DNA of 64,000 nucleotides from an uncultured Gammaproteobacteria bacterium. GTDB taxonomy: Bacteria > Pseudomonadota > Gammaproteobacteria > JACCXJ01. The notes beneath the pieces were generated by a model. It was not told where the DNA came from. It searched no databases and saw only the letters and a list, made by a program, of their open reading frames with translations. Position numbers and translations under genes: made by a program. Below, in pieces: positions 17,501-48,170 of this stretch (position 1 is the stretch's first letter; each line of letters opens with the position of its first letter). Location of the stretch: contig CAVXTM010000015.1 of NCBI GenBank assembly GCA_963764725.1, positions 192,001-256,000 on the forward strand, read 5' to 3'.

Positions 17501-18701
17501 CTACAAAGTCCCTTACGGCGGGGTGCTGACGGTTACCGACGGGTTTGAGGTTCAGCCCGGGCAGGTGATCGCGACTTGGGATCCCCATACTCACCCCGTT
17601 ATTACGGAAGTGGCGGGCGTGGTGGCGTTCGCGGATATCGTCGAAGGGGTCACCGTGAACCGGCACATCGATGAGATCACCGGTCTGACCAGCATCGTAG
17701 TAATGGATCCGAAACAACGGCCGTCCAGCGCCAAAGACCTGCGGCCGGTCGTCAAGCTTGTCGACGCCGAGGGTACGGATCTCAAGATCCCGGGCACGGA
17801 GATCCCAGCGCACTATTTCCTGCCGCCGCGGGCCATTGTGAATGTCGAGGACGGCGCCAACGTGAAAGTCGGCGATGTCATCGCGAGATTGCCTCAGGAG
17901 TCCTTAAAGACGCGTGATATTACCGGGGGGCTGCCACGCGTAGCCGATCTGTTCGAGGCGCGCCGACCGAAAGAGGCCGCCGTCCTTGCCGAGGTCTCGG
18001 GGACGGTCAGCTTCGGACGCGACACCAAGGGGAAGCAACGTTTGGTGCTCACCGACCAGACGGGCGAACAAACGGAGATCCTTATCCCGAAATGGCGTCA
18101 AGTCGCCGTGTTTGAAGGAGAGCATGTCGAGAGGGGCGAAGTGATCGTGGACGGCGCGCCGGACTCGCACGATATTTTGCGCCTGAAAGGCGTCTATGCG
18201 TTGACGAACTATATCGTCAATGAAGTGCAGGACGTATACCGCCTGCAAGGGGTGAAGATCAACGACAAGCATATCGAGGTCATCGTGCGCCAAATGCTCC
18301 GCAAGGTGGAAATCACCGACCCCGGCGATACGCGCTTCCTCCTGGGTGAGCACGCCGAAAAAGAACGGGTGCTCGATGAAAACGAACGCGGCGCGCGGGA
18401 AGGCAAGAAACCGGCGCGGTGGGCGCAGATGCTGCTCGGAATTACCAAGGCTTCCTTGGCCACCGAATCGTTCATCTCGGCGGCGTCCTTCCAAGAAACG
18501 ACGCGGGTTTTGACCGAGGCGGCGGTAACCGGGAAACGCGACGAGCTGCGCGGGCTCAAGGAGAACGTCATCGTTGGGCGATTGATCCCAGCCGGAACGG
18601 GATTCGCCTTTCACGGGGAGCGACGCAGCCAACGTGAGGAACCGGTGGATCTGACAACCCGCTTCGCCGATCTCGGCGGGGCGGATGTAGCGGCGGGTTA
18701 G
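14523..18701 (+). CDS. rpoC: RNA polymerase beta-prime subunit (TTG start)
   Basis: NADFDGDQM catalytic motif; AGGAGG RBS. Confidence 0.99.
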
Positions 18702-36743: not shown

Positions 36744-36914
36744 TCCGCTCCATGCCGCGGGACACCGGCTAACGTCGCGATCTGCAGCCCTGGGAGTGAG
36801 AGCTTTTGAACATATCTAACCACACATACGTGAAATTTTGGGTTACCTCCGAGGTTCTTGTCCTTCCGGCCGGGATAAGCATTGTGTTGTGCAAGCCGCG
36901 CATGGTTTACAAAA

Positions 36915-37075
36915 TAGACTGGGCGCATGGTTTACAAATTTCTCCCTCTCCCTCCCGGGAGAGGGTTGGGGTGAGGGGATCAAAATCATCAACGAAAGCG
37001 CTTGATTTGATTCCCCTCATCCTAGCCTTCTCCCGGAGGGAGAAGGGACTTTCAGATTCGTCGAAGTCGGTCTGT
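36915..37075. repeat. REP-doublet/MITE-like palindromic element
   Basis: TCCCTCTCCCTCCCGGGAGAGGGTTGGGGTGAGGGG paired with the inverted CCCCTCATCCTAGCCTTCTCCCGGAGGGAGAAGGGA; weak ends TAGACTG/CGGTCTG. Confidence 0.7.
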
Positions 37076-37178
37076 ATAACATTGGTTGCGTAAGGATCTA
37101 CTGCCCTCGCTACGATTTCTTCACAAGCTCTGAGTGGAGGGTTGCAGCGAGGCTACGCCTCTCCGACAATCGACTGTC

Positions 37179-37981: not shown

Positions 37982-39166
37982 CTAACAATCGTGCCTATCT
38001 GTCGGCTCGATGAGCCCCATGGTTTCCATGCGCAGCCGGTTAAGACGGTGCTGAGACGCGATCTCCGCTGCTGCTTCCCGCACGGTCGTCTGAATCTTGA
38101 TATCATCTTCATCTGGGTTCGTAATTTTTGCGGCCTGATTGCCCAATAGGTGAATCTTGGAGGTCAGGCGCTCCTGATCGTTATTGGAAAAATACTCTAC
38201 GAATTCCTGCCTTGAGAACTGAGCTAACCGCTTCCTGTCAGCGGTCCCCGGAAAGTCAGCAGCAAGCGCGCTTTCTATAACTTCGCCAATCGATCGCTGA
38301 TCGATGCTCGCAGCGTGCTCTGCTTCCCGCAGCGCCTGGTCCAATTTCCCGTACTTGATGGGCTGCATCAAAGCCGATGATCCGTCGAAATGCTTCAATG
38401 ACTCTCCCCTGAGGCGAAAAAAATCATTCAGCAGCAGTTCTGCAATGGAATCCCTACCCAATAGCACAAGTATATTTAGTGCCCCGTCAAGTTGATGCAC
38501 CGGTATGAACTCCATGTATTCCTTTGTAGCCAATTCCAGTGCAGCACAAAATTCCTTTTCCGTGTTACGCAAGGTCCCGTGAAAGTATTTGCGCCAAACT
38601 CCACTGAATCGATGCTCACGAGCCCCCATACTTATTTTCTGGACGTATTTCTCGTATTCATGAATTAGTTTTTCAGTGTCTAACGTGTCTGTTCGTACGA
38701 AATCGATCAAGTTTCTGTCTAGGTCATCGGTAAACGTATAACCGTATCGAGTTAATAATGCGCTAGCACGGTCAGAATCAGTACGTTGCTGCTGTTCTTG
38801 CGATGCTTCATCAAACACCGCAGAAAAATCTGAGTACCTGGCCAAGAATTCTAGAGTTAGACCTTTCAAGTCTGACTTCGAAAACTTGACCCATACAAAA
38901 AGGAGTATAGAAAAGAGGGCTGCTTTTCGAAATTCCTGATCAGCGTCTAGTGGCAGTACTTGTTCGAGCTCGTGATAGTAATTTCTTACTTTGCCTATGA
39001 GTCTGATATTTCGCAGATGGAGAACATCGCAGCGGCGAGTAAGCTCTGCCAGCAGCTCAGGGTCGCGGTTGATGCTTGAAGTGGCTTCGAAGACAAGGCG
39101 CAGGATCGCGGAGACGTCCGGAGAAAAGGGCAGTTCTCTGTCAACGACCTTTTCGTGGTATTTCTG
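37982..39166 (-). pseudogene. KAP-family P-loop NTPase, 3' part (interrupted by IS)
   Basis: Open frame QKYHEKVVDRELPF... continuous with ORF 37982-38869. Confidence 0.8.
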
Positions 39167-40552
39167 GAGAAATAGTCAAATGTTGTGTACGGAGCTAGGT
39201 TAGGCGGCGATTCTTTCGGGGTCTTCCCATAGGCCGTCTTTGAAAATAACTCCCTCGATGACTTGAGCGAGGCGGGGAATTCCATACAGTTTCCGCCAAT
39301 GTCGCTCGGCACTTTTTACCAACATGAATACCATCGCCAAAATGCTTTCTCGAGACACGCAGCCGCGGGTTTTGTTGGTGCGCAGCCGGACCGTAGCAAA
39401 GGTGGATTCGATCGGATTCGTGGTCCGAAGATGGATCCAGTGCTCTGCCGGAAAATCGTAGAAGGCCAACAGTGACCCCCGATCTTTTTCCAAACACTCC
39501 GCAGCTTTCGGATACTTGGGACGGTAGAGGATCAGAAAGCGATCGAAGGCGCGCTCGGCCTCCTGCCGGGTGGCTGCCATCCAGATCTCCTGCAGCGCCG
39601 CCTTGGCCTTAGGTTGCTGGCTCTTGGGTAGCTTGTTGAGCACGTTGGCAGTCTTGTGTACCCAACAGCGTTGACCACGGGTCATGCCGAAGACTTGCGG
39701 TAATGCCTTCCAGAATCCCAAGGCCCCATCGCCGGTGGCCAGATGCGGATCGAGCTTCAAGCCACGGGCTTTCAGATCCAATAGCACTTCCCGCCAGGAC
39801 GCTTCACTTTCCCGATAGCCATCGGCGAGCGTCACCAATTCTTTCTTACCCTCAGCCGTCGCGCCGATCACCACCAGAATGCACTGGGCCGCATCTTCCA
39901 GCCGTACCCCGAAATGGATACCGTTGACCCATAGATACACATAGCGCCGGTTCGATAGATCGCGCCGTGACCAGCGCGCGTGCTCGTCTTGCCATACCGC
40001 CTTGAGCCGACCGATCGTGCTGGCCGACAAGCCCGGCGCCTCTCGCCCCAACAAAGCCGTCAGCGCCTCCTGAAAATCACCTGTCGAGATCCCCTTCAAG
40101 TATAACCAGGGCAATAGTTCCTCCAGCGTCTTGGTGCGCCGTATATAGGGTGGCAATATCGAGGAGTTATACCGGATCGTCTTTTCCCGGTCCCGAACCC
40201 GCGGTATTTTCACCTCCACCGCTCCCACACCGGTTTGTATCGTCCGTCCCGGCAGATGACCGTTACGTACCACACGCTGGCGTCCTTCCGCCGTTTCCTG
40301 TCCCATGAAACCTTCCAGAAAAACCGCAACTTCCGCTTCAATCGCAGCCGCTAGCATCCGTTGGGCACCCGCCCGCAGAATCTCTGTGAGCGCATCCGCG
40401 ACCGGAGCCGGCGTCCCTGGATTCTTCAACGCAATTACTTTATCTTCACTCATGGCGTATTCACTCCTTTCAGTAGGAATTGATGACCTTGAAGACCATC
40501 AAGAATACGCCGCCTCCTTTACTCCTTCATCCACAACTTTCAATCATAACTC
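39167..40552 (-). mobile_element. IS256-family insertion sequence, 1386 bp
   Basis: Imperfect TIRs GAGAAATAGTCAAATGTTGTG / GAGTTATGATTGAAAGTTGTG; 9-bp TSD GTATTTCTG at 39158-39166 and 40553-40561. Confidence 0.93.
39200..40453 (-). CDS. IS256 (Mutator) family transposase; first catalytic Asp appears as Asn
   Basis: RNGH..R.I.TGVG, LYLKGISTGD, LWVNG, TGDG, QRCWVH, LRTTNPIES. Confidence 0.93.
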   Translation of the reverse strand: MSEDKVIALKNPGTPAPVADALTEILRAGAQRMLAAAIEAEVAVFLEGFMGQETAEGRQRVVRNGHLPGRTIQTGVGAVEVKIPRVRDREKTIRYNSSILPPYIRRTKTLEELLPWLYLKGISTGDFQEALTALLGREAPGLSASTIGRLKAVWQDEHARWSRRDLSNRRYVYLWVNGIHFGVRLEDAAQCILVVIGATAEGKKELVTLADGYRESEASWREVLLDLKARGLKLDPHLATGDGALGFWKALPQVFGMTRGQRCWVHKTANVLNKLPKSQQPKAKAALQEIWMAATRQEAERAFDRFLILYRPKYPKAAECLEKDRGSLLAFYDFPAEHWIHLRTTNPIESTFATVRLRTNKTRGCVSRESILAMVFMLVKSAERHWRKLYGIPRLAQVIEGVIFKDGLWEDPERIAA

Positions 40553-41086
40553 GTATTTCTGAAATGCATCATTCTTTATCGCGGCTTCATCGTTGTAGAT
40601 AAGTACGACCTTTAGCTGACGCTCGTCCCTCAATTCGTTGATATACCCGAGTAATGCATCGACCCCGATGCTGTCCGACAACCGTTCGATATCGTCGAGG
40701 CAAAGTATCCAGCCCGGTTTCAGCGTTGTGCTTTCGAGTAGTTTTGTTATCAGAGTATCGGGAATGCGAAGTCCCTTTACCAGGGCAGTAGCGGTTTGCC
40801 TCCCTATCTCGACCAGTCGGATGAGAATGCTCTCGGTGGCGGGGCGAAGTCTAGGTAGCAGAGCAGCGAGAACAACTTTCTCGCGAATGGTCTGCAATGT
40901 ATCAGCACCGAAAACGGAGACGTAGCCAATGCGTTCTGGCGCGTATGAGGCTGCAACGTTGTTTTTCCAGAAGTATGTCTTGCCTTCGCCCCACCCTCCC
41001 TTCAGTGCCACGACGATAGGCCGCTCAGAGTCGAAAACGACTCGAGCAAGTGTCTCCTTTAGTTTCTCTAAAGTCGGCGCTGGCAA
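40553..41086 (-). pseudogene. KAP-family P-loop NTPase, 5' part
   Basis: Walker A ALKGGWGEGKT, Walker B LCLDDIER; runs into the IS end. Confidence 0.82.
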
Positions 41087-41119: not shown

Positions 41120-42571
41120 TCAGCGTAGGTCAGGCACATTTTCTAGCTTCTTTTTGAGGATCGCATTGATCTGCTGCGGATTCGCTTTGCCCTTGGATTT
41201 CTTCATGACCTGGCCGACGAAGTAGGCGAGCAATTGCTCCTTGCCTTGGCGGTATTGACTGACTTGCGACGGATTCTGTTGCAGTACTTCGTCGATCATC
41301 TTCGCAATCGCGGCCGTATCGGTGACCTGCTCTAATCCCCGGTTGCGAATGATTTCGTCGGCGTCACCCTCGCCGTTCCACAGGGCTTCGAACACCTCTT
41401 TGGCGATCTTCCCGGAGATCGTGTTGTCGGCAATCCGCCGGACCAAGCCCCCGAGCAGCGCCGGGCTGATCGGGCTTTGGGTGATGTCTTTTCCCTCGCG
41501 GTTGAGCGCGGCCATCAATTCGCCCATGACCCAGTTGGCGGACAGCTTGGCCTGACCTCCGGAGACCGCAACGGTGGCCTCGAAATAGTCCGCGGTCTCC
41601 CGGTTCGCCGTCAGCAGCGCCGCGTCATAAGGCGACAACCCGAACTCCGCCATGAACCGGTGTTTCTTGGCATCGGGGAGCTCGGGCAGCGTGGCCTCGA
41701 CGTCGGCGATAAACTCTGCGCTGAGATCCAAGGGTAAGAGATCGGGATCCGGAAAATACCGATAATCGTTGGCCTCTTCTTTTAAGCGCATCGAGCGGGT
41801 CTCGCCGCGTTCGACATCGTAGAGCCTGGTCTCCTGGACGACCCGCCCGCCGGATCCAAGCAAGTCGATCTGCCGTTGGATCTCGTAATTGATGGCCCGC
41901 TCGACAAAGCGAAACGAGTTGAGGTTTTTGATTTCGGCCCGGGTCCCGAACGTGGTTTGTCCTTGCGGGCGGACCGAGACGTTAGCGTCACAGCGAAACG
42001 AGCCTTCCTGCATGTTTCCATCGCAGATTTCGAGATACCGGACCAAGCTGTGGATCGTTTTCATGTAGGCGACGGCTTGCTTGGCCGAACGCAGATCCGG
42101 TTCCGAGACGATTTCAAGCAGCGGCGTTCCCGCGCGGTTCAAGTCGATGCCCGACATGCCGTGAAAGGCATCATGGAGCGATTTGCCGGCATCCTCTTCG
42201 AGGTGCGCCCGCGTGATGCCAATGCGCATGACGGCGCCATTTTCGCTCTCGATCTCGATCGATCCCTGTCCAACGATGGGGATCTCATACTGGCTGATCT
42301 GATAGCCTTTGGGGAGGTCGGGGTAAAAATAGTTCTTGCGTGCGAATATTGATCGCCGGCTGATGTTCGCATGGATCGCGAGTCCGAACTTCACCGCCAT
42401 CCTGACGGCTTCTTTATTGAGTACCGGCAGCACCCCGGGCAGCCCCAGATCGACGCCGCAGGCCTGTGTATTCGGAAGGGCGCCGTACGCGGTGGCGGCC
42501 CCGGAAAAGATCTTGCTCCTGGTCGCGAGCTGCGCGTGAATTTCGAGTCCGATAACTGGTTCCCAATCCAT
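41120..42571 (-). CDS. gatB: Asp/Glu-tRNA amidotransferase subunit B
   Basis: [36 protein letters not shown]. Confidence 0.99.
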
Positions 42572-42701: not shown

Positions 42702-44156
42702 TTAACCGCACCCTTCGGGCGCACGCAGGTGCCAGTCCGTCGCTTGCTGGTAGCGGTGGGCCGCGTTCAATAACCGGGCCTCGCCGAAGTGATCGCCGAT
42801 GAGCTGTAGTCCCACGGGAAGACGCCCGACAAAGCCCGCCGGCAGCGACAGGGCCGGTAATCCCGCCAGATTGATCGAAATCGTATAGATGTCGGAGAGA
42901 TACATCGTGACCGGATCGTCGGTCTTTTCACCGAGCTTGAAGGCGACGGTCGGTGAGGTCGGGCCGAGGATCACATCGGCCTCCGCGAAGGCCCGCTGAA
43001 AGTCATCGCGGATGAGCCGCCGGATCCGCTGCGCCTTGAGGTAGTAAGCATCGTAGTAACCGGCCGAGAGAGCATAGGTTCCGATCATGATGCGCCGCTT
43101 GACCTCGGCGCCAAACCCCTCCCCGCGGGAGCGGGAAAAGAGATCGTTGATATCTAGCGCATCATCGCAACGGTAGCCGTAACGCACGCCATCGAAACGG
43201 GCGAGATTGGAAGAGCATTCGGCCGGCGCAACCACATAGTACGCCGGAATGGACAGATGGGTATTGGGCAGCGAAATCTCGGAAACGACCGCCCCCAGGC
43301 GTTCAAATTGTCTAGCCGCGGATTCGATCACGGCGCCAATTTGGGAGTCTAGCCCTTCTCCGAAGAATTCGCGCGGGAGCCCGATCCGGAGTCCCTCGAT
43401 CGAGTCGTCGAGGTGTGCCGAGTAGTCTTCGGCCGCGCGCTCGGCGGAGGTCGAATCCCGCGCATCGAAGCCCGCCATGGCGGTGAGCAATAGCGCCGCA
43501 TCCTCTGCGGAACGGGCGATCGGTCCGCCTTGATCGAGGCTCGATGCATAGGCGACCATCCCATAGCGGGACACGGTCCCATAGGTCGGCTTAATGCCGG
43601 TAAGACCGCAGAGGGCCGCGGGTTGGCGAATAGACCCGCCGGTGTCGGTGCCGGTGGCGGCGGGCGCCAATCGAGCCGCCACGGCGCATGCCGAGCCGCC
43701 GGACGAGCCCCCCGGCACGCGCTCGATGTCCCAAGGGTTGCGCACGGGTCCGTAAAAGCTGGTCTCGTTGGACGATCCCATGGCGAATTCATCCATATTG
43801 GTCTTGCCGAGCATCACCATACCGGCCCGCCGGAGCTTTTCGACCACCGTCGCATCGTAGGGAGCGATAAAGTTGTCCAGCATTCGCGAGCCGCAGGATG
43901 TCTTGACGCCGCGCGTGCAAAAAATGTCTTTGTGCGCGATCGGGATGCCTGTGAGCGGTCCATTGTTACCCGCCTGGCGCCGCTGATCGGCCTCTCTGGC
44001 TTGCGTGCGTGCGAGGTCCGCGGTGACCGTGATGAAGCTATTGTATTTCCCGTCCATGCGTGCGATGCGATCGAGATAGATCTCGGTCAGCTCAACACTC
44101 GAGATCTCGCGCCGATCGAGCGCCCGCGACAATTGTATTAGGGAAATTTTATACAT
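42702..44156 (-). CDS. gatA: Asp/Glu-tRNA amidotransferase subunit A
   Basis: Amidase signature [18 protein letters not shown]. Confidence 0.99.
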
Positions 44157-44163
44157 CCGGCGG

Positions 44164-44454
44164 CTAGGTATCTATCACCTTCGGGACACAATAAAGCCCG
44201 GCCTCCATATGTGCGGCAATTGCTTGAAACGCCTCTCTCTGATCCCCTTCCGTGACCACGTCGTCGCGGAGTCTCAGGCTCAGCTCCAGAGGATGGGCGA
44301 GCGGTGCGACGCTGACTGTATCCACGGTGTTCATTTGTTCGACCAAGGCCAGGATGCTTGAAAGCTGCCGCGCATACTCGGGAATGTCGTTGTCACTCAA
44401 CTTTAGCTGCGCCAACCATGCGATTCTCTCCACGTCGGTTTTCTCTAGGGCCAT
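44164..44454 (-). CDS. gatC: Asp/Glu-tRNA amidotransferase subunit C, copy A
   Basis: [32 protein letters not shown]. Confidence 0.95.
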
Positions 44455-44484
44455 TTCAGCTCGCCATGCGGGTCCGGGATCCCA

Positions 44485-44513
44485 AATTTACCACAGCCAC
44501 AAGCTTGCTCGAA
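44485..44513 (-). promoter_or_regulatory. Putative gatCAB promoter (duplicated at 45451-45479)
   Basis: Minus strand TTCGAG-17 bp-TAAATT with extended -10 TGn. Confidence 0.45.
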
Positions 44514-44710
44514 GCCTTGGCGACTGGTACAGCGGTAATTACACTGCACGCCTCTGCACAGGCTCGCTCATGACCGCTGCGGCGATCTTACCTGATGGGG
44601 CCCCGCGGCTCTTGCGCGTCGACTCACCAGAGGGATGGTTTATACTGCCTATACTCTACTCTCTATGGTTGTGCTAGAGTGCCGGCGCCACTGAAGGAAG
44701 GAGACTCGTC

Positions 44711-45076
44711 GTGATTACATACGCCTACTGGATACTGATCATAGGGCTTGCGGCCCTGGCCTTGTTCGTCATCGGCTCGAAACTGAATAAGTGGACGGCG
44801 GCACTGGTGATAGCGTCCATCATTCTCGTCGTCGGCTGGGCGGCGTATTTTTTCCACTATCAGCAGGTATTCGTGAAGCACTGGGGTGGCGTCATGTCCA
44901 TTGACGTCCCCGCCGGCCAGCACCACATTGGGGCGACGTGGAAGGATGATAACCTCTGGGTCGAGAACTACGACCCCGCGACCAATACCTGTGAGTTTCG
45001 CGAGTACGCCAGAGGAAATCTGCTGCAAGGCCACGTTTTGATAAAGAATTGCAACCCCGTGTTTCCAAGACAGTAG
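44711..45076 (+). CDS. Hypothetical small membrane protein (2 TM plus Cys-containing soluble domain)
   Basis: AAGGAAGGAG RBS before GTG; TATACT at 44641-44646; two hydrophobic segments then WGG...TWKDDNLW. Confidence 0.8.
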   Translation: MITYAYWILIIGLAALALFVIGSKLNKWTAALVIASIILVVGWAAYFFHYQQVFVKHWGGVMSIDVPAGQHHIGATWKDDNLWVENYDPATNTCEFREYARGNLLQGHVLIKNCNPVFPRQ

Positions 45077-45112
45077 CGCACGCCACAGACGTTACGACAA
45101 ACGGTCGCCGTG

Positions 45113-45498
45113 TTTTATACATCCGGCGGCTAGGTATCTATCACCTTCGGGACACAATAAAGCCCGGCCTCCACATGTGCGGCAATTGCTTGAAACGCTT
45201 CTCTCTGATCCCCTTCCGTGACCACGTCGTCGCGGAGTCTCAGGCTCAGCTCCAGAGGATGGGCGAGCGGTGCGACGCTGACTGTATCCACGGTGTTCAT
45301 TTGTTCGACCAAGGCCAGGATGCTTGAAAGCTGCCGCGCATACTCGGGAATGTCGTTGTCACTCAACTTTAGCTGCGCCAACCATGCGATTCTCTCCACG
45401 TCGGTTTTCTCTAGGGCCATTTCAGCTCGCCATGCGGGTCCGGGATCCCAAATTTACCACAGCCACAAGCTTGCTCGAAGCCTTGGCGACTGGTACAG
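45113..45498. repeat. 386-bp direct repeat, copy B
   Basis: Offset of 966 bp from copy A. Confidence 0.97.
45130..45420 (-). CDS. gatC: Asp/Glu-tRNA amidotransferase subunit C, copy B
   Basis: Same protein as copy A except HVE vs HME. Confidence 0.95.
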
Positions 45499-45591
45499 TG
45501 ACACATGCGTTGACCTGGGGAAACGTTTAGTTCGTAGTTCTTAATCGCACCGGGGGGCTTTCACCGCCCGCATTCGCGAGTGGCGTTTGGT

Positions 45592-46638
45592 ATGTTTAGC
45601 CGATTGCGCGGATTTTTTTCGAACGACTTATCCATCGATCTGGGGACGGCGAATACGCTCATCTATATGCGCGGAAAGGGCGTCGTTCTGAACGAGCCCT
45701 CGGTCGTGGCCATTCGCCAGAGCTCGAATCATTCCAACCAAAAGAGGATCGCAGCCGTCGGCACTGAGGCCAAGCGTATGTTAGGACGCACGCCGGGCAA
45801 TATCACGGCGACGCGTCCGCTCAAGGATGGGGTCATCGCGGATTTTACCGTCACCGAAAAAATGCTGCAGCACTTCATGCATAAGGTCCATGGGAATCGC
45901 TTCTTGAAGCCGAGCCCGCGGGTCGTGGTGTGCGTACCCTGCGGCTCGACACAGGTGGAGCGGCGGGCCATCCGCGAATCAGCGGCCGGGGCGGGCGCGC
46001 GCGATGTCTACCTGCTGGAAGAGCCTTTGGCCGCGGCCATCGGCGCCGGGTTGCCAGTCAGCGATGCCAGCGGCTCCATGGTCTTGGATATCGGCGGGGG
46101 CACCTCGGAGGTCGCGATTATATCGCTTAACGGCATTGTATTTGCAGATTCCGTGCGTATCGGCGGCGATCGATTGGACGACGCGATCATCAATTATGTG
46201 CGCCGTAACTACGGGACCCTGATCGGGGATGCGACCGCCGAGCGTATCAAGCACACGATAGGTTGCGCCTATCCCGGCGATGAGGTGAGGGAAATGGAGG
46301 TACGGGGTAGGAATCTTGCCGAAGGGCTGCCCCGCAGCTTCACCCTGAACAGCAACGAGATCTTGGAGGCCTTGCAGGAGCCCTTGTCGGGAATCGTAAG
46401 CGCCGTGAAGACATCCCTGGAAAAGACACCGCCGGAGCTCGCCTCGGACGTCTCGGAGCGCGGCATGGTGTTAACCGGTGGAGGCGCCTTGCTCCGGGAC
46501 ATCGATCGGCTGCTGAAAGAGGAAACCGGGATCCCGGTGGTGATGGCCGAGGACCCGCTCACCTGCGTCGCGCGCGGTGGTGGGCGCGTACTGGAACTGA
46601 TCGACGAGCTCGGTCCCGAGGTTTTATCCTTAGAGTAA
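45592..46638 (+). CDS. mreB: Rod shape-determining protein MreB
   Basis: [24 protein letters not shown]. Confidence 0.99.
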
Positions 46639-47538: not shown

Positions 47539-48023
47539 TGGCGGAACAAGGCGGATCGGCTTGGGCAATTCCGGTGACCTTGCTGGCGGCGATCGTACTC
47601 ACGCTTATGCCCCTGCCTGACTGGGCGGTAGCATGGCGGCCCGCGTGGACGGCCATGGTGTTGATCTATTGGTGCATGGCCGTACCGGACCGCGTCGGTA
47701 TCGGCGTCGCTTGGGGCATCGGGCTAGTACTTGACGCCTTGGAGGGGAGTCTGCTTGGGCAACACGCCGCCGGGTTCGCGATCATCGCCTACCTCACCGT
47801 GACGAATCACCGGCGCTTGCGTACCTTTTCATGGTTTCAACAGTCCTTATGCGTGGGTCTGCTAGTCGCAACCAATGCGCTATTGAAGACCTGGGTCCAA
47901 GGAATCATGGGCTTAATCCCGGACTACGCGATCCACTGGTTGCCTGTCATCTCGACCATGGTGTTCTGGCCATGGCTCTATCTGGTGTTGCGGGATATGC
48001 GCCGCAAACACGGCATCGTTTAA
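47535..48023 (+). CDS. mreD: Rod shape-determining protein MreD
   Basis: RPAW...LIYW...PDRVGIG, GSLLGQHA. Confidence 0.95.
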   Translation: MMAEQGGSAWAIPVTLLAAIVLTLMPLPDWAVAWRPAWTAMVLIYWCMAVPDRVGIGVAWGIGLVLDALEGSLLGQHAAGFAIIAYLTVTNHRRLRTFSWFQQSLCVGLLVATNALLKTWVQGIMGLIPDYAIHWLPVISTMVFWPWLYLVLRDMRRKHGIV

Positions 48024-48170
48024 GGAAGCTCTGCAAAAGTTACTGCGCAGCCCATATGCTTTGTCGCGTGCTCGCTCGTCGCTCGCCTATCTACCTGATA
48101 TGTCTCGCGACTCGCTCCGCAGCTTCGCGCATCTTGCCTTGCTCGCGAAACTTTTGCAGAGCTTCCTTAA
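48020..48170. mobile_element. MITE with perfect 22-bp terminal inverted repeat
   Basis: TTAAGGAAGCTCTGCAAAAGTT / AACTTTTGCAGAGCTTCCTTAA; TTAA at both ends. Confidence 0.85.

Follow-up and report, generated by a model that had tools for sequence, protein, structure and literature searches.

The locus considered here raises a simple question: why does the essential gene gatC stand twice, on either side of a small unrelated gene? It lies in a window of 64,000 nucleotides (nt), the whole stretch of DNA analysed, which comes from an uncultured gammaproteobacterium of the lineage JACCXJ01 (assembly GCA_963764725.1, contig CAVXTM010000015.1, positions 192,001 to 256,000 of the forward strand). All coordinates are those of the window, and the genome to which it belongs, in 19 contigs, is called G000. 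A preliminary description of the DNA saw in the arrangement the integration of a small circle or the remnant of an element, and suggested that the gene between the copies forms part of a minimal mobile unit. The comparisons given below make it quite probable that the structure goes back to one old event, an "insertion with long target duplication", which took place in the ancestor shared by G000, its sister species G003 and the lineage of a metagenome contig, L097. The inserted piece is called U and its gene X.

The duplicated gatC region

The operons mreBCD and gatCAB are both essential. At this locus they diverge from a shared control region of ~160 nt, and the minus strand reads, in turn, mreB upstream DNA, repeat copy B, U, repeat copy A, gatA and gatB. 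The features concerned are the following.

41120 to 42571, minus strand: gatB, the last gene of gatCAB, an open reading frame (ORF) of 483 amino acids (aa)
42702 to 44156, minus strand: gatA, unbroken and continuous with repeat copy A, an ORF of 484 aa (PF01425, Amidase, E 3.8e-156)
44147 to 44532: repeat copy A, which comprises gatC with the 78 nt upstream of it and 10 nt of gatA; the working copy, which feeds gatA-gatB
44164 to 44454, minus strand: gatC of copy A, an ORF of 96 aa (PF02686, E 5.2e-17)
44455 to 44532, minus strand: conserved block upstream of gatC in copy A, including TTCGAG-17-TAAATT
44533 to 45112: insert U, 580 nt, without counterpart in 7 of 8 congeners
45113 to 45498: repeat copy B, on the mreB side, redundant and dead-ending in U
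45130 to 45420, minus strand: gatC of copy B, whole here and frameshifted or truncated in G003 and L097, an ORF of 96 aa (PF02686, E 3e-17)
45580 to 46638, plus strand: mreB, divergent from gatC (PF06723, E 7e-146)

Copies A and B are direct repeats of 386 nt with 99.5% identity, spaced 966 nt from start to start. The two single-nucleotide differences that had been recorded between them are borne out by sequence comparison and lie at 44208 (T, against C at 45174) and 44233 (C, against T at 45199). One gives a Met/Val exchange in GatC, the second is synonymous. A repeat of this length and identity far exceeds chance; the region of 6 kb has four other families of direct repeats, of 20-25 nt and 72-80% identity. 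Each copy had been said to hold 78 nt of upstream DNA, the whole of gatC and the first 10 nt of gatA, and Pfam finds GatC in both. The continuity of gatA (42702-44156) with copy A likewise bears out the view that this copy leaves the series promoter, gatC, gatA and gatB whole.

Two details of the preliminary description hold in part. The gatA stub of copy B does dead-end in U, but no stop codon follows its first residues, MYK, and the stub opens an ORF of 76 aa. The putative gatC promoter, TTCGAG-17-TAAATT, is rejected by a promoter consensus scan; it lies, however, within a block that is invariant in 11 of 11 aligned copies from the genus, and is for that reason probably regulatory. On the other side, mreB starts ~90 nt past copy B on the plus strand. 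The ATG at 45592 appears the more likely start and is preferred here, the ORF of G003 beginning at the equivalent ATG.

Repeats this long are a classic source of mis-joins, and the assembly is that of a metagenome-derived genome. A chimeric or mis-joined contig could have produced the whole pattern. The same architecture, gatA - gatC - X - gatC' - mreB, is nevertheless found in G003 (the alignments of L006 and L017 are identical) and on metagenome contig L097, and the junction between U and copy A is identical in G000, G003 and L097. Among public sequencing runs, X7 yielded a contig of 759 nt that consists of 44497-45112, 86 other letters and 45143-45198; it has the form seen in L097 and crosses both junctions. 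A contig from run X2 crosses the junction of copy A with U. In run X1 the flanks and one repeat were covered at ~99% identity and U was uncovered, a pattern that might come from an empty allele of some close relative; no contig joined across the gap. The best public run contained 0.37 of the sampled words of the stretch, and none of the runs came from the source sample. Since the architecture has been assembled independently in G003 (L017), L097 and run X7, the contig is no chimera. The repeat-U-repeat structure is confirmed as real, and an assembly artefact, largely refuted, retains a negligible probability.

Empty sites and descent

The locus is present in all eight other genomes of the genus. 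Seven of these (G001, G002, G004-G008) have only one repeat copy, placed directly between mreB upstream DNA and gatA, and each repeat copy of G000 is 91-96% identical to the single copy of a congener. The site is thus empty in 7 of 8 congeners, in agreement with the earlier idea of an insertion. The public genomes G004 and G006 are among those empty at the site. In comparisons of the flanks that include unpublished genomes, the eighth, G003, is the nearest congener: its identity is 96-97% along the 5.8 kb towards mre and 95% across gatB, the others having 90-95%. When loci bearing X were searched with a GatB query, the sole match was L097, at 96%.

The U of G000 has 95.7% identity to that of G003 and likewise to that of L097; identities in the flanks are 95.9-98.6%. 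A single origin follows from the copy-A-side junction, which is the same in the three lineages, and the fact that U has diverged like its flanks points to vertical inheritance since before these lineages split. From these comparisons the simplest history would be one insertion in the common ancestor of G000, G003 and L097 that was then passed down vertically. In the other species the empty site is the ancestral condition, not a product of excision.

The exact length of the duplicated target may be somewhat greater than that of the present repeat. By eye, 10 of the 12 nt immediately outside copy A match the native sequence of G007, which is closer to them than the flank of copy B in G000 itself. 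The duplication may accordingly have measured ~398 nt rather than 386. Twelve nucleotides are too short a stretch to decide from it whether copy A came from another lineage.

Decay and conversion of the second copy

The two copies have fared differently in the three lineages. In G003, gatC of copy B has a premature stop that leaves 81 aa. In L097 the same copy has several 1-nt insertions or deletions, and its translation is 62% identical. Over 369 aligned nt, A and B differ at 21 positions in G003, at 15 in L097 and at only 2 in G000; the A copies of different lineages differ from each other at 7-14. A maximum-likelihood tree places the A and B copies of G000 together (support 98/94) and joins the A copies of G003 and L097 by orthology (98/95), with the two decayed B copies on long unresolved branches.

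The direction of the exchange can be read from single columns of the alignment. At column 5 a derived C is present in all three A copies and in the B copy of G000; an A has been kept in the other two B copies and in all four single-copy congeners tabulated. The derived C in the B copy of G000 indicates that copy A overwrote copy B in that genome. Columns 277 and 317 of L097 form a partial conversion tract of the same kind. The paralogs of G000 therefore evolve in concert: they cluster against their orthologs, and copy B carries the derived state of copy A. Conversion from A to B accounts for there being only two differences left between the copies in G000.

The junction of copy B with U has a history of its own. 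The 10-nt gatA stub found there in G000 is identical to native gatA. Because there is no homology past the stub, it cannot have been delivered by conversion and probably represents the original junction. In G003 (L006 2065-2135) and L097 a different stretch of 70-72 nt, with a GC-rich hairpin, stands in place of the stub; it occurs only once in G003 and has no counterpart in G000 or G001. It was considered as a decayed gatA and rejected, the local alignments being at chance level (181/1000 and 234/1000 shuffles reach the score). Runs X2 and X6 have loose ends past 45112 that are unlike both known forms of the junction. From these sequences the copy-B side of the insert seems to be hypervariable.

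The insert and its gene

Within U and at its border three features were distinguished.

44711 to 45076, plus strand: X, 121 aa with a GTG start, the only plausible gene of U
44578 to 44657, plus strand: promoter-like module of ~80 nt upstream of X, holding TCGACT-16-TATACT at 44619-44646
44892 to 45122, minus strand: ORF of 76 aa to which the gatA stub of copy B gives the start; it runs antisense through X and is probably meaningless

A ribosome-binding site, GGAAGGAG, stands 7 nt ahead of the GTG of X. Together with the TATACT box it agrees with the reading of the 580-bp insert as one gene with its own ribosome-binding site and a -10-like box. The reported lack of an integrase, a transposase and inverted repeats also holds: neither a transposase or integrase ORF, nor an integrase fragment, nor an inverted repeat, nor a tRNA was found in U. 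Nothing in the insert is able to move it. Rfam gave no match at E<=1 overlapping the repeat-U-repeat structure and none at E<=0.1 on ten other loci that bear the module; on these grounds the idea that U or its promoter-like module holds an RNA element was rejected. In G000, U is single-copy.

This content bears on one alternative, that a larger site-specific island entered at the 5' end of gatA, bringing gatC and a replacement promoter with it, and that its integrase and the bulk of its cargo were lost afterwards. Islands are known that integrate at a gene's 5' end and make the gene whole again, among them SXT/R391 in prfC and the dusA-specific islands. It would suit such an origin that the repeat ends 10 nt inside gatA and that the copy-B-side junction varies between lineages. 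Yet U has no integrase fragment or other ORF remnant, the same short U is found in all three lineages, what is duplicated is ordinary target DNA, 386 nt in length, and not a short core, and no tRNA or transfer-messenger RNA is involved. An island remnant is accordingly unlikely.

X itself belongs to a large and conserved family. There are 1597 homologs at E<=0.001. The closest relatives (P0001-P0006) are 80-82% identical, and others in Gamma-, Beta- and Deltaproteobacteria and beyond are 60-70% identical. Alignment A1 has 35 invariant columns in 25 sequences, with two conserved cysteines. No Pfam, NCBIfam or PADLOC family matched X, and its atlas matches were to unnamed clusters only. X is predicted to be a membrane protein with two membrane helices. 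The AlphaFold model has two N-terminal helices and a four-stranded sheet, at a pLDDT (predicted local distance difference test) of 79.6, and found no match in the PDB at E<=0.001.

In Proteobacteria and beyond X is a stand-alone gene in varied contexts; its neighbours vary from order to order (36 genes scanned at 18 loci). No phage match was found, and there were only four distant matches (30-40%), on Pseudomonas megaplasmids. Among 41 related genomes X is limited to two, G000 and G003, which indicates that it was acquired horizontally. It is intact within the clade, with a ratio of nonsynonymous to synonymous substitution rates (dN/dS) of 0.41-0.58, calculated from only 5-17 differences per pair. 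These highly conserved, unnamed small membrane proteins are worth study in their own right.

A promoter-like module native to the family

The module upstream of X has relatives elsewhere. Copies with 75-83% identity are found one to three per genome, only in genomes of the same bacterial family; they come from unpublished genomes (G001, G008, G009, G010) and public ones (G000, G003, G006, G011, G013). They share the pattern T[CT]GACT, 16-17 nt, TATACT (L002, L177-L194). The sole other copy in G000 lies on contig C7 at 17506-17589 (L002), upstream of a BON-LysM gene. Similarity stops a few bases past the TATACT box and the genes downstream are unrelated: besides BON-LysM they include DUF1207, a fragment of a sigma-54 activator and a patatin operon. 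Some copies extend ~250 nt further upstream. No transposase was found close to the copies, and the module was not found upstream of X in the loci examined from other taxa.

By these comparisons U is composite: its ORF is foreign, its promoter-like piece is native to the family, and this implies that U was put together within this family. The module itself may reflect promoter reuse or may be a small element of some undescribed kind. Nijveen, Matus-Garcia and van Passel (2012; PMC3575422) have described promoter reuse and putative mobile promoters. Judged against the available parts of that paper, the module resembles such cases in standing upstream of unrelated genes and in ending after a -10-like box; it differs in being only a putative promoter and in having copies that reach ~250 nt further upstream.

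How the insertion may have come about

These observations would fit together as follows. A piece of 580 nt, consisting of X and the promoter-like module, would have entered the control region shared by the divergent mreBCD and gatCAB operons. A target of ~386-398 nt, comprising the upstream region, gatC and the start of gatA, came to lie on both sides of U. Both operons thereby kept their full upstream region, with gatC-gatA-gatB whole behind copy A. Copy B, on the mreB side, has been redundant from that time on; it is decaying in G003 and L097 and has been overwritten from A in G000.

That both operons stayed intact explains why the insertion survived at this site. Because the ~160-nt control region is shared and both operons are essential, probably only insertions that duplicate the region survive; an insertion here probably persists only if the control region ends up on both sides. 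We infer selection for intact control regions.

Two routes could have led to this product. The first, a single crossover of a circularised fragment in which U was already joined to a copy of the gatC region, may well be the correct one, although its probability falls a little short of even. The preliminary description had proposed just such an integration, of a circle of ~966 bp, and the layout is indeed the expected product, which is all that is visible of it. The second, in which break repair or a template switch during replication copied U in while duplicating the target, is a possibility of somewhat lower standing that still deserves serious consideration. The smaller share of probability that is left falls to other routes.

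Several points weigh against the history of a single insertion that left its target duplicated over a long stretch. Five of the seven empty sites are in unpublished genomes (G001, G002, G005, G007, G008). The gatA side is star-like, G004 being 96.5% and G003 96.4% identical to G000, and the cassette could have spread among close lineages by recombination in conserved flanks. Apart from the groups given above, the tree of repeats is unresolved, with 8 of 10 inner branches weak. The two-difference state of copy B in G000 is known from the assembly, and polishing can homogenise repeats. The dN/dS of X is relaxed for so conserved a family, and its function here is hence uncertain. Finally, the mechanism of insertion is inferred, being known from its product only.

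Is the unit mobile?

The strongest claim made for this locus was that it represents a minimal mobile unit free of any recombinase. An active unit of this kind, 966 bp of U plus one repeat, would loop out in a RecA-dependent manner and then amplify or re-enter relatives at gatC as a landing pad. The 386 nt at 99.5% identity are an ample substrate for homologous recombination, the gatA-side flank groups the insert-bearing genomes unclearly, and a cycle of invasion, amplification and release has been proposed for other insertions in the available text of Furuta et al. (2010; PMC2853133).

The history of the locus argues otherwise. U has a single origin, and it diverges together with its flanks, as expected of vertical descent. 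Decay of copy B in two of the three lineages removes the substrate for recombination. The preliminary description had asked whether the cargo occurs elsewhere in the genome, and no second copy of U was found there. In four runs examined, no joint that skips 966 nt was seen.

Parallel cases were looked for at other loci bearing X. At 158 of these, 79 from genomes and 79 from metagenomes, no GatC match was present within the flanks fetched, leaving an active unit without a parallel. One locus (L165) has a GatA-like amidase, 52% identical, 2.4 kb from X. In a k-mer scan of 160 X loci for exact direct repeats, long ones flanked X in L017 and L097 only. A further candidate, L172, has a 55-nt exact repeat around X; it was rejected as an assembler k-mer overlap with one copy at the contig end. 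The arrangement is thus a one-off, an outcome that the preliminary description had itself named as telling against mobility, and the empty sites are ancestral and belong to other species. The claim of a recombinase-free mobile unit was not sustained, and it is distinctly unlikely that the unit is active.

A more pointed form of the same idea would make the 966-bp unit a "homology-hitchhiking" cassette, whose copy of a conserved essential gene allows it to leave by way of RecA and to re-enter relatives harmlessly. If this were true, the near-identity of the repeats would have been kept because it preserves the ability to exit and re-enter. The layout permits such a cassette; the evidence disfavours it, and it must be judged very unlikely.

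Other repeated sequences in the window

The window contains several dispersed repeats apart from the gatC duplication. At 48020-48170, between mreD and the PBP2 gene, stands a miniature inverted-repeat transposable element (MITE)-like sequence of ~150 nt whose terminal inverted repeats, 22 nt each, are perfect; its first bases overlap the stop codon of mreD. Dozens of copies, 92-97% identical, are present in every genome of the genus. The element is missing at the same site in G003 and G004, where the alignments are contiguous, which indicates that the insertion at 48020-48170 is recent.

An insertion sequence (IS) at 39159-40563, ~550 nt past gatB, encodes a Mutator-family transposase of 417 aa (PF00872, E 1e-62) and has several 100%-identical copies on other contigs of G000. 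It adjoins an ORF of 180 aa at 40544-41086 that retains no more of a KAP NTPase than its N-terminal P-loop portion and is probably a truncated gene. At 36797-37135 two short dispersed repeats (~150-200 nt) adjoin each other; G002, G003 and further genomes of the genus contain many copies, 73-91% identical.

Comparison with known systems

The criteria for transposons, insertion sequences and MITEs do not describe the gatC locus: U lacks terminal inverted repeats, is single-copy and is bounded by a duplication of 386 nt. Nor does it have the marks of a site-specific island, there being no integrase ORF, no tRNA and no overlapping Rfam match at E<=1. A literature search on gatC and repeats returned only papers on the GATC motif.

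The closest precedent is the class of insertions with long target duplication examined by Furuta, Abe and Kobayashi (2010; PMC2853133), who credit its discovery to Nobusato, Uchiyama, Ohashi and Kobayashi (Gene, 2000). In the parts of their paper drawn on here, the class is defined by an empty site in a relative, repeats of more than 30 bp that align to a single target, and the absence of any other mobile element. The flanking duplications range from 46 to 423 bp, and those listed include pairs of 417/423, 384/412 and 388/397. As far as those parts go, direct evidence concerns the amplification step only, release being unproven.

By the same definition, the present locus has its empty site in seven of eight congeners, which align on both flanks with nothing between them. 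Its repeats, at 386 nt, are longer than 30 bp and both align to one single-copy sequence. U, at 580 nt, is below the 20 kb allowed and contains no other mobile element. The cargo is different: the restriction-modification item, which in that text is a criterion of the screen and not of the rearrangement, has X in its place. The published cases, in what is available of them, invoke DNA breakage by restriction-modification genes, whereas here the gene is that of a small membrane protein. They also differ from the present one in target and age: here the target is a whole essential gene with its upstream region, between divergent essential operons, and the insertion is of such an age that the duplicate can be seen in both its fates, decay and gene conversion. 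The structure is therefore a known, seldom-noticed kind of insertion and not a new type of element. The idea of a mobile cycle is not new either, having already been proposed in the same paper.

Campbell-type insertion-duplication offers a second comparison. It too yields a homologous segment, an insert and a homologous segment, with no need of a recombinase gene. This route would require an earlier joining of U to a copy of the gatC region, and at this locus the product is all that is seen of it.

A third comparison comes from the laboratory. Johnston et al. (2013; PMC3784515) found that an essential gene bearing a lethal cassette was recovered in no cells but those that carried a duplication. 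As in those merodiploids, the duplication at gatC keeps one whole essential gene beside an interrupted copy. As described in the available text, those duplications were 100-900 kb long, had borders of IS fragments and arose in laboratory transformation; the present one is of 0.4 kb and natural.

Set beside these systems, the locus provides a natural example of a foreign gene placed between divergent essential operons with damage to neither, by way of a duplicated control region and, in this case, a whole essential gene duplicated with it. Since one event can be followed in three lineages, both fates of a redundant copy of an essential gene are seen side by side, decay in two and conversion in one. 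For annotation it carries a warning that the second gatC of this locus is a by-product of the insertion. The category of "insertion with long target duplication" is hereby extended past restriction-modification cargo.

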